Positions 1,705-1,978 of a stretch of DNA of 5,200 nucleotides are shown here, in pieces. The stretch lies in the IMG/VR virus record IMGVR_UViG_3300000357_000284, positions 1-5,200 of that record. The stretch is one strand, 5' to 3'. Every line of letters starts with the position of its first letter. Position 1 is the first letter of the stretch. Made by a program: the position numbers and the translations under genes. The notes under the pieces were generated by a model, which saw nothing but the letters and a program-made list of their open reading frames with translations, was not told where the DNA came from and made no database searches. Source of the stretch: a virus (lineage: Duplodnaviria > Heunggongvirae > Uroviricota > Caudoviricetes).

Positions 1705-1761
1705 ACATCTACTTGACGCGGCAGGGGATTGATTGGAATGGTGTTTTTTAGATGTGAAAAA

Positions 1762-1783
1762 TATTTTACCCGCTATTTTACCC
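1762..1783. repeat. Tandem direct repeat TATTTTACCC x2 (1762-1771 and 1774-1783) overlapping the torI stop codon; candidate arm-type or excisionase binding sites
   Basis: Two exact 10-bp copies separated by 2 nt, 58-79 bp from the att core. A 7-bp inverted repeat ACATCTA/TAGATGT (1705-1711 and 1750-1756) lies in the same arm. Confidence 0.35.
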
Positions 1784-1978
1784 ATTGGCGCGGCTTAAGA
1801 GCTTATTTTTGAATTCACAATGGTCACGATATAACCATCTTGCTCGCCCGTGGATAACTTTGGCTTTTGGCAGGTCGCCGGACTTAATCCGGTCATAGAT
1901 GAAGGTTTTACCGAAGCCAGTATCGGCCATGATGAATTTCAAATCAACCAGTGAATCAGGTTGTAGTTCGTGTTGCAT
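1778..1978 (-). CDS. torI: AlpA/Xis-family winged-helix excisionase (recombination directionality factor), 66 aa; matches my recollection of TorI of the KplE1/CPS-53 prophage
   Basis: ATG 1978-1976 preceded by GGAG (1991-1988, 9-nt spacer); TAA at 1780-1778. The 66-aa product contains the AlpA-like core ADTGFGKTFIYDRIKSGDLPKAKVIHGRARWLYRD. It sits next to the argW-derived att core with no integrase nearby, which is the known KplE1 layout (int at attL, RDF at attR). Confidence 0.7.
   Translation of the reverse strand: MQHELQPDSLVDLKFIMADTGFGKTFIYDRIKSGDLPKAKVIHGRARWLYRDHCEFKNKLLSRANG

Follow-up and report, generated by a model that had tools for sequence, protein, structure and literature searches.

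Tandem repeats at the torI stop codon as probable arm-type integrase sites in the attR P arm of a KplE1/HK620/Sf6-type prophage

From the evidence assembled in this study, the two exact copies of TATTTTACCC in the phage arm of an attR site are very probably arm-type sites for the N-terminal arm-binding domain of the integrase IntS, placed in a P arm of the KplE1/HK620/Sf6 type. The element itself is already known, as the attR P-arm IntS sites of the KplE1/HK620/Sf6 module. In the window, by which we mean the whole stretch of 5,200 nucleotides that was analysed, the copies occupy 1762-1771 and 1774-1783, 12 bp from start to start, and are located 58-79 bp away from the att core at 1690-1704. 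The first-pass annotation, made from the letters of the DNA, had described two exact 10-bp direct repeats of just this spacing and core distance, and its coordinates are confirmed in the sequence. On the torI-sense (minus) strand, the direct repeat reads GGGTAAAATA. The distal copy (1774-1783, minus strand), for which the exact repeat, its conservation and its motif identity all point to an arm-type IntS site, covers the torI stop codon TAA (1778-1780) together with the GGG codon of Gly66 (1781-1783); the overlap with the end of the excisionase gene, likewise described in the first-pass annotation, is thus real. The proximal copy (1762-1771, minus strand), 12 bp from the distal one and non-coding, is assigned as a putative arm-type site from the exact repeat and from conservation.

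The setting is that of a prophage boundary. A gene for a cscB-type sucrose/oligosaccharide permease of the MFS type (1-1248; named from the annotation in related genomes) is followed by a spacer from cscB to attR (1249-1689) that contains a DUF4942 gene fragment of 50 aa on the minus strand (1328-1480). Next comes the attR core at 1690-1704, the duplicated 3' end of argW (a tRNA-Arg gene), CTGCAGGGGACACCA, identified on the minus strand from the published core and from alignment to the K-12 attR; as written in the window it is the reverse complement of CTGCAGGGGACACCA, and it comprises 15 of the 16 published nucleotides. The duplicated core of KplE1 has 16 nt (PMC2951348), whereas the duplication here has 15 nt and ends in ...ACACCAg, because the bacterial flank differs from that of K-12; the bacterial side of the core is ...ACACCAgatacc here as compared to ...ACACCATCCTTG in K-12. 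The DNA is prophage from 1705 rightwards, and the direct repeats sit in the phage arm of attR. The torI gene (1778-1978, minus strand) encodes the recombination directionality factor (RDF) of 66 aa; the open reading frame matches the torI annotation in RefSeq E. coli, the TorI amino-acid sequence is that of the K-12 copy, and the coding sequences differ by four synonymous nucleotides. Early genes resembling those of P22/HK620, with DUF551 and Ead/Ea22 domains, come after torI. Another genome that shares this arrangement has the prophage end about 12 kb further on, made up of intS, attL and argW; the intS of the present prophage is located outside the window. A tRNA scan of the window returned no tRNA gene, as expected for attR, and a search of 1250-2300 against the Rfam families gave two sub-threshold chance matches only. 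The flank on the csc side is often met in prophage contigs of E. coli, and the spacer at 1249-1689 may be the remnant of an earlier element at argW. Separately, a strong hairpin resembling an intrinsic terminator was noticed on the minus strand at 2027-2046 (AAGCCGCC TGAT GGCGGTTT, then TTTATTGCC), about 50 nt upstream of the torI start codon, where it would insulate torI from transcription of the upstream early genes; two further terminator-like hairpins lie at 2222-2241 and 2252-2273.

Taken alone, the direct repeat is only modestly unusual: shuffling the local 400 nt yields a close exact 10-mer direct repeat in 0.8% of cases, and shuffling the whole 5.2-kb window does so in roughly 11%. Elsewhere in the window, the exact 10-mer is represented just by weak matches with 1-2 mismatches, at chance level. 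The 8-mer GGGTAAAA occurs three times in the window, with 0.17 occurrences expected, and six times in the K-12 prophage locus, with 0.36 expected; five of these six are inside the att arms.

The identity of the repeats is supported chiefly by comparison with att sites that are already understood. The attR of the window is nearly identical to the attR of K-12 KplE1 and to the attP of HK620 and Sf6, with both 10-mers unchanged; together with the core, this near-identity bears out the earlier reading of the region as an att arm. In the GenBank record of HK620 (AF335538), these very 23 bp are entered as a repeat_region with the label attP. Both att arms contain a short motif that is different from the core, with two copies in attR and four related copies in the attL of K-12 and of the csc-context prophage. 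In K-12, the attL just upstream of intS carries GGGTAAAAAG and GGATAAAATA 12 bp apart, plus inverted GGGTAAAATT and GGGTAAAAAT, and the same four sites are found in the csc-context prophage. The published arm-type P' sites for IntS on attL all contain TAAA, and P'1 overlaps the -10 box of intS (PMC2951348); GGGTAAAAAG of the K-12 attL overlaps the intS -10 box TAAAAA, 18 bp after TTGACA. The two attR copies have the same motif as these four published P' sites, all with TAAA, and because the motif is shared they can be considered to carry the arm-type motif of IntS. The suggestion that the repeats are of the arm type and bind protein, made in the first-pass annotation, is thereby substantiated at the level of sequence, and one check it had named, a search for the repeat at the other prophage end, finds the same motif in attL in the form of four variants. 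As regards arrangement, the P' arm of the K-12 attL (701-747 of the retrieved locus) shows the tandem pair 12 bp apart first, then the two inverted copies 15 bp apart; the 12-bp tandem pair looks like a recurring IntS binding unit on both arms.

Functional data on the module place the repeats within a recombination-competent site. In-vitro excision reactions with a 135-bp attR substrate, which is bounded by the primer attR-IHF2, have reached about 80% efficiency (PMC3509656, PMC2951348). The primer (CTCTTAAGCCGCGCCAATGG), which defines the phage-side end of that substrate, was matched by eye as an exact reverse complement to 1782-1801 (minus strand), so both repeats fall inside the functional 135-bp attR, almost at its edge; little else of the phage arm is comprised in it. 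The IntS of a related prophage in csc/argW context (L002) has a PF13356 domain, Arm-DNA-bind_3, at residues 2-86 (E = 9e-26), in addition to the central and catalytic domains. Panis et al. are said to have mapped the attR arm sites in J Biol Chem 2007 (282:21798) and Virology 2010 (404:41), and both studies reportedly described binding of IntS to the attR arm sites as well as loss of recombination on mutation of the sites. For the DNA considered here, we infer the physical binding of IntS to both copies, and the looping geometry set out below, from sequence and by analogy.

Conservation across genera shows which part of the repeat matters. A protein-based search for relatives of TorI, with one genome taken per species, gave 21 loci, 18 of which have a full-length RDF, and this set is free of motif selection. 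The 18 loci, from more than 10 enterobacterial genera, include Escherichia, Serratia, Citrobacter, Dryocola, Pantoea, Tatumella, Rouxiella, Edwardsiella and one metagenome-assembled genome (labelled Actinomycetes), and in 18/18 the sequence GGGTAAA-N5-GGGTAAA is positioned exactly at the RDF stop codon. In Klebsiella and Erwinia phages, GGGTAAA-N5-G(G/A)GTAAA is found at the RDF stop, with GAGTAAA as the second site of Klebsiella phage Chronis. Chronis and the Erwinia phages Midgardsormr38 and EhrS_49 have 75-80% identity in this region and the same layout, and on their other arm the four P' motifs and the GTTCG repeats are kept. Among 20 diverse arms, GGGTAAA of the distal site is invariant, and no lineage lacks G(G/A)GTAAAA at the proximal site, whereas the flanks and the 5-nt spacer are variable; the information content is 2.0 bits per column in both site cores, compared to 0.8 in the 5-nt spacer and 0.6-0.8 in longer spacers. 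The conserved unit is therefore GGGTAAA(A) and not the full 10-mer, the last three bases of which are variable between lineages. The core motif TGCAGGG follows the start of the distal site at a distance of exactly 80 bp in 24 out of 25 loci, with 81 bp in one of the 18 full-length RDF loci, and the same 80-bp offset recurs in 40/40 RDF-linked viral contigs whose arm reaches the core. Only RDF-linked matches were used for the viral contigs, as 80 of the 121 matches of the motif-only scan were to unrelated sequences that lack a TorI-like gene; by itself, the 15-base pattern is hence not diagnostic. The repeats are thus present in every related att region examined, their absence from such regions having been named beforehand as a refuting result, and they are present there as the GGGTAAA-type motif, with the exact 10-bp repeat restricted to Escherichia-type arms. 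A TorI homologue of Proteus hauseri (74% identity over residues 5-62) was seen to have a different C-terminus and no GGGTAAA pair downstream; presumably, it belongs to a different att/integrase arrangement.

The same conservation extends into the coding sequence of torI, where it is more readily understood as a property of DNA than of protein. The terminal RDF codon GGG and the stop codon TAA are found in 22/22 distinct RDF genes, though the preceding residues vary; this 22-gene codon set was partly motif-selected, the unbiased set being the 18 full-length RDF loci. The internal invariant glycines Gly21 and Gly34 are encoded by GGC, GGT or GGA and never by GGG. Since the Gly66 codon and the stop codon are frozen, unlike the other glycine codons, the constraint appears to act on DNA and not on protein. 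In a degraded related prophage (L002, strain LH10-b-1), the distal site is GAGTAAAATA and the codon is GAG (Glu), hence persistence in a genome does not strictly depend on the first G triplet. The overlap of the distal site with the last codon and the stop of torI follows from the placement of attP directly between the RDF and integrase genes, an order given in the literature (PMC8787464) with which the HK620 annotation agrees.

Alternative explanations for the repeats must be weighed against these findings. The first-pass annotation had offered a mixed reading, with excisionases and integrases both as binders of such repeats, and binding of TorI, or of TorI and IntS both, might seem attractive given that tandem direct repeats spaced by roughly a helical turn are the target of many RDFs and that the repeats are directly beside the RDF gene. 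The published TorI sites, however, are five pentamers of the series GTTCG/GATCG/GTCCG, all located on attL (PMC2951348; PMC3509656); both strands of 1705-1801 are free of these pentamers, and the GTTCG repeats of divergent attPs are conserved on the P' arm only. The excisionase assignment is therefore not upheld, and TorI sites here are considered highly improbable. A coding origin, in which the direct repeat would be a by-product of the torI C-terminus or of a small open reading frame across attP (hkaB in HK620, gene 17 in Sf6), is the least credible of the readings, practically to be dismissed. An open reading frame does exist on the minus strand at 1654-1785, its product would begin with MGKIAGKI, and the annotations of HK620, Sf6 and Erwinia phage Midgardsormr38 include homologous frames. 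Against it, 8 of 20 lineages have stop codons within the hkaB-like frame, conservation does not extend to its start codon, and the frame spans the crossover point and would thus be broken on integration. The torI coding sequence, for its part, covers just 6 nt of the distal copy, the proximal copy being downstream of the stop, and the frozen choice of codon for Gly66 and for the stop, unlike that of the other glycines, is indicative of a DNA constraint.

Occupancy of arm-type sites by IntS could, in addition, serve regulation. IntS on both sites might affect transcription at the torI end, either by blocking read-through from torI to intS in the excised phage or by influencing completion of the torI transcript. 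There is precedent in attL, where IntS on the P' sites and TorI repress the overlapping intS promoter (PMC2951348); moreover, the gene order torI-attP-intS in the circular phage has a single orientation, and none of the 18 full-length RDF loci from the protein search lacks the stop-codon overlap. A consensus scan of 1690-1800, in contrast, shows no promoter-like or terminator-like signal, and TorI translation cannot be influenced by sites that lie downstream of the stop. The proposal of the first-pass annotation, that occupancy of the sites is coupled to the RDF gene's end, is left unsupported; the compact torI-attP-intS module and the constraint on the arm site explain the conserved overlap, and a regulatory role at the torI end is regarded as unlikely.

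The first-pass annotation had also drawn attention to an inverted repeat, ACATCTA at 1705-1711 and TAGATGT at 1749-1755 (plus strand), and this must be separated from the direct repeats. Its exact presence, with 37 nt between the two parts, stands; its significance does not. A functional role as protein-binding palindrome or hairpin could be argued from the perfect 7-bp match and from its occurrence in K-12, HK620 and Sf6. Yet when the 116-nt arm is shuffled, 13% of the shuffles contain one or more 7-nt inverted repeats, and outside the Escherichia-type arms just 1-5 of the 7 positions match. Pairing is not above that of shuffles (63.6% compared to 63.8% paired), and the E. coli variants ACACCTA and TAGATGC break the inverted repeat without compensation. 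The distal part, TAGATGT, is neither conserved nor compensated and is without functional support. The ACATCTA part is conserved because it overlaps a candidate core-type half-site, GATGT. On comparison of the sequences, then, the inverted repeat is a chance match, and a function for it is very unlikely.

With the direct repeats read as arm-type IntS sites, a mechanism for their involvement in recombination may be proposed by analogy with lambda-type intasomes and from the layout of the arm. Two IntS protomers would dock on the tandem sites 12 bp apart, and the DNA would be bent by IHF at a site between the arm sites and the core. The bend would fold the arm back on itself, enabling the catalytic domains of the arm-bound IntS to reach core-type sites some 70-80 bp away and so helping to build the intasome; excision would also require TorI, acting from its own attL sites. 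Such looped geometry would fit the rigid 80-bp offset. A candidate for the bending site is the IHF-like sequence AATCAATCCCCTG at 1722-1734 (minus strand), a match to WATCAANNNNTTR with one mismatch that is conserved across genera, with an A6 tract (1744-1749) upstream of it. The match at 1722-1734 alone is not significant, as the window has five one-mismatch matches to WATCAANNNNTTR and 7.2 are expected; the IHF-like block has 1.39 bits per column across genera, compared to about 0.7 in the spacers. The name of the primer attR-IHF2 implies that IHF sites were mapped on attR, and the abstract of the Virology 2010 study reportedly mentions one functional IHF site on attR. For the core, TGCAGGG is flanked by GATGT (1705-1709, minus strand; 1.59 bits per column) and ACACC (1691-1695), which together make an imperfect inverted repeat. 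The two partners change together, as in the GGCGT/ACGCC pair of Edwardsiella, and they match perfectly in Erwinia phage EhrS_49 (GGTGT/ACACC); they are candidate IntS core-type half-sites, flanking an overlap region of 7-9 bp.

A second inverted repeat, found on the minus strand within 1695-1728, deserves separate mention. It consists of TCCCCTGC (1695-1702) and GCAGGGGA (1721-1728), has 8 bp and an 18-nt spacer, and links the tRNA-derived core to the phage arm, with one arm overlapping the IHF-like site and the other within the core. Conservation and compensatory changes mark it out: it is 93% paired across the 20 diverse arms and kept in most lineages, and it is lost in one Pantoea clade. 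RNAalifold selects the TCCCCTGC/GCAGGGGA helix minus its outermost pair (7/8 pairs), and the same helix is the centroid RNA fold of the region. Compensatory changes are seen in Rouxiella (CCCCTAC/GTAGGGG), in Edwardsiella (ATCCCTGC/GCAGGGAA) and in one viral contig (GTTCCCTGC/GCAGGGAAC). The covariation score exceeds that of all 500 shuffles, with modest z-scores and from two or three events. Most of the one-sided changes are C-to-T and would stay G-U pairs in the torI-sense RNA. The repeat could be coincidental, falling within a candidate IHF site, or it could provide an additional contact for the integrase or form a hairpin in RNA. In a more specific form of the last, held to be doubtful, a tRNA-minihelix-like hairpin (stem, then CACCA) at the 3' end of the torI transcript would set stability or processing of the RDF mRNA, or read-through into intS; if true, the hairpin and the arm site frozen into the torI stop would tie RDF expression to the att site.

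Regarding known systems, the closest relation is to the KplE1 (CPS-53)/HK620/Sf6 module, which comprises IntS, TorI and attL/attR at the tRNA gene argW (Panis, Mejean and Ansaldi 2007; PMC2951348; Clark et al. 2001, AF335538). The 10-mers, their 12-bp spacing, the core distance of 58-79 bp and the overlap with the torI stop are all identical, the distal site being the same in K-12 KplE1, HK620 and Sf6, and from 1705 to the torI end the phage arm differs from that of K-12 KplE1 by a few bases only. Unlike in KplE1, the flank is the csc sucrose island (cscB, DUF4942 fragment) where K-12 has dsdC, and the prophage body is a P22/HK620-like early region where KplE1 is a 10-kb remnant. The P' arm of lambda attP has the C' core site, the H' IHF site and the tandem arm-type sites P'1-P'3. 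The present arm resembles it in having tandem direct arm-type repeats about 55-85 bp from the core and an A-tract in the interval, where lambda has its IHF site and the present arm a candidate one; with such a layout, a fold induced by IHF would bring arm-bound integrase to the core. It differs in its motif, GGGTAAAA, which is unlike the arm-type motif of lambda, and in having two sites where lambda has three. Further differences from lambda are a P4-type integrase with PF13356 arm domain, an attP between the RDF and integrase genes, RDF sites on the arm at the side of the integrase gene, and one arm site embedded in the RDF stop codon.

The wider family is that of TorI-type RDF/P4-type integrase modules at tRNA-Arg genes of Enterobacterales, represented by Chronis, Midgardsormr38, EhrS_49 and prophages of Serratia, Citrobacter, Pantoea, Edwardsiella and others. 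Its members have in common the GGGTAAA-N5-G(G/A)GTAAA at the RDF stop, the 80-bp offset to TGCAGGG and the IHF-like block, and on the other arm the GTTCG repeats and four arm motifs; they differ by lineage in the last three bases of each 10-mer, in the spacers and in parts of the core.

Lastly, the study shows that real recombination sites were spotted from raw sequence, in a module that is among the better-characterised ones outside lambda. What is added to the existing knowledge is modest: a cross-genus GGGTAAA(A) footprint, the rigid 12-bp phasing together with the 80-bp offset, and an arm site that fixes the end of the RDF gene as GGG TAA. The GGGTAAA(A) footprint and its phasing could aid the automatic annotation of att sites in a widespread family of argW prophages.
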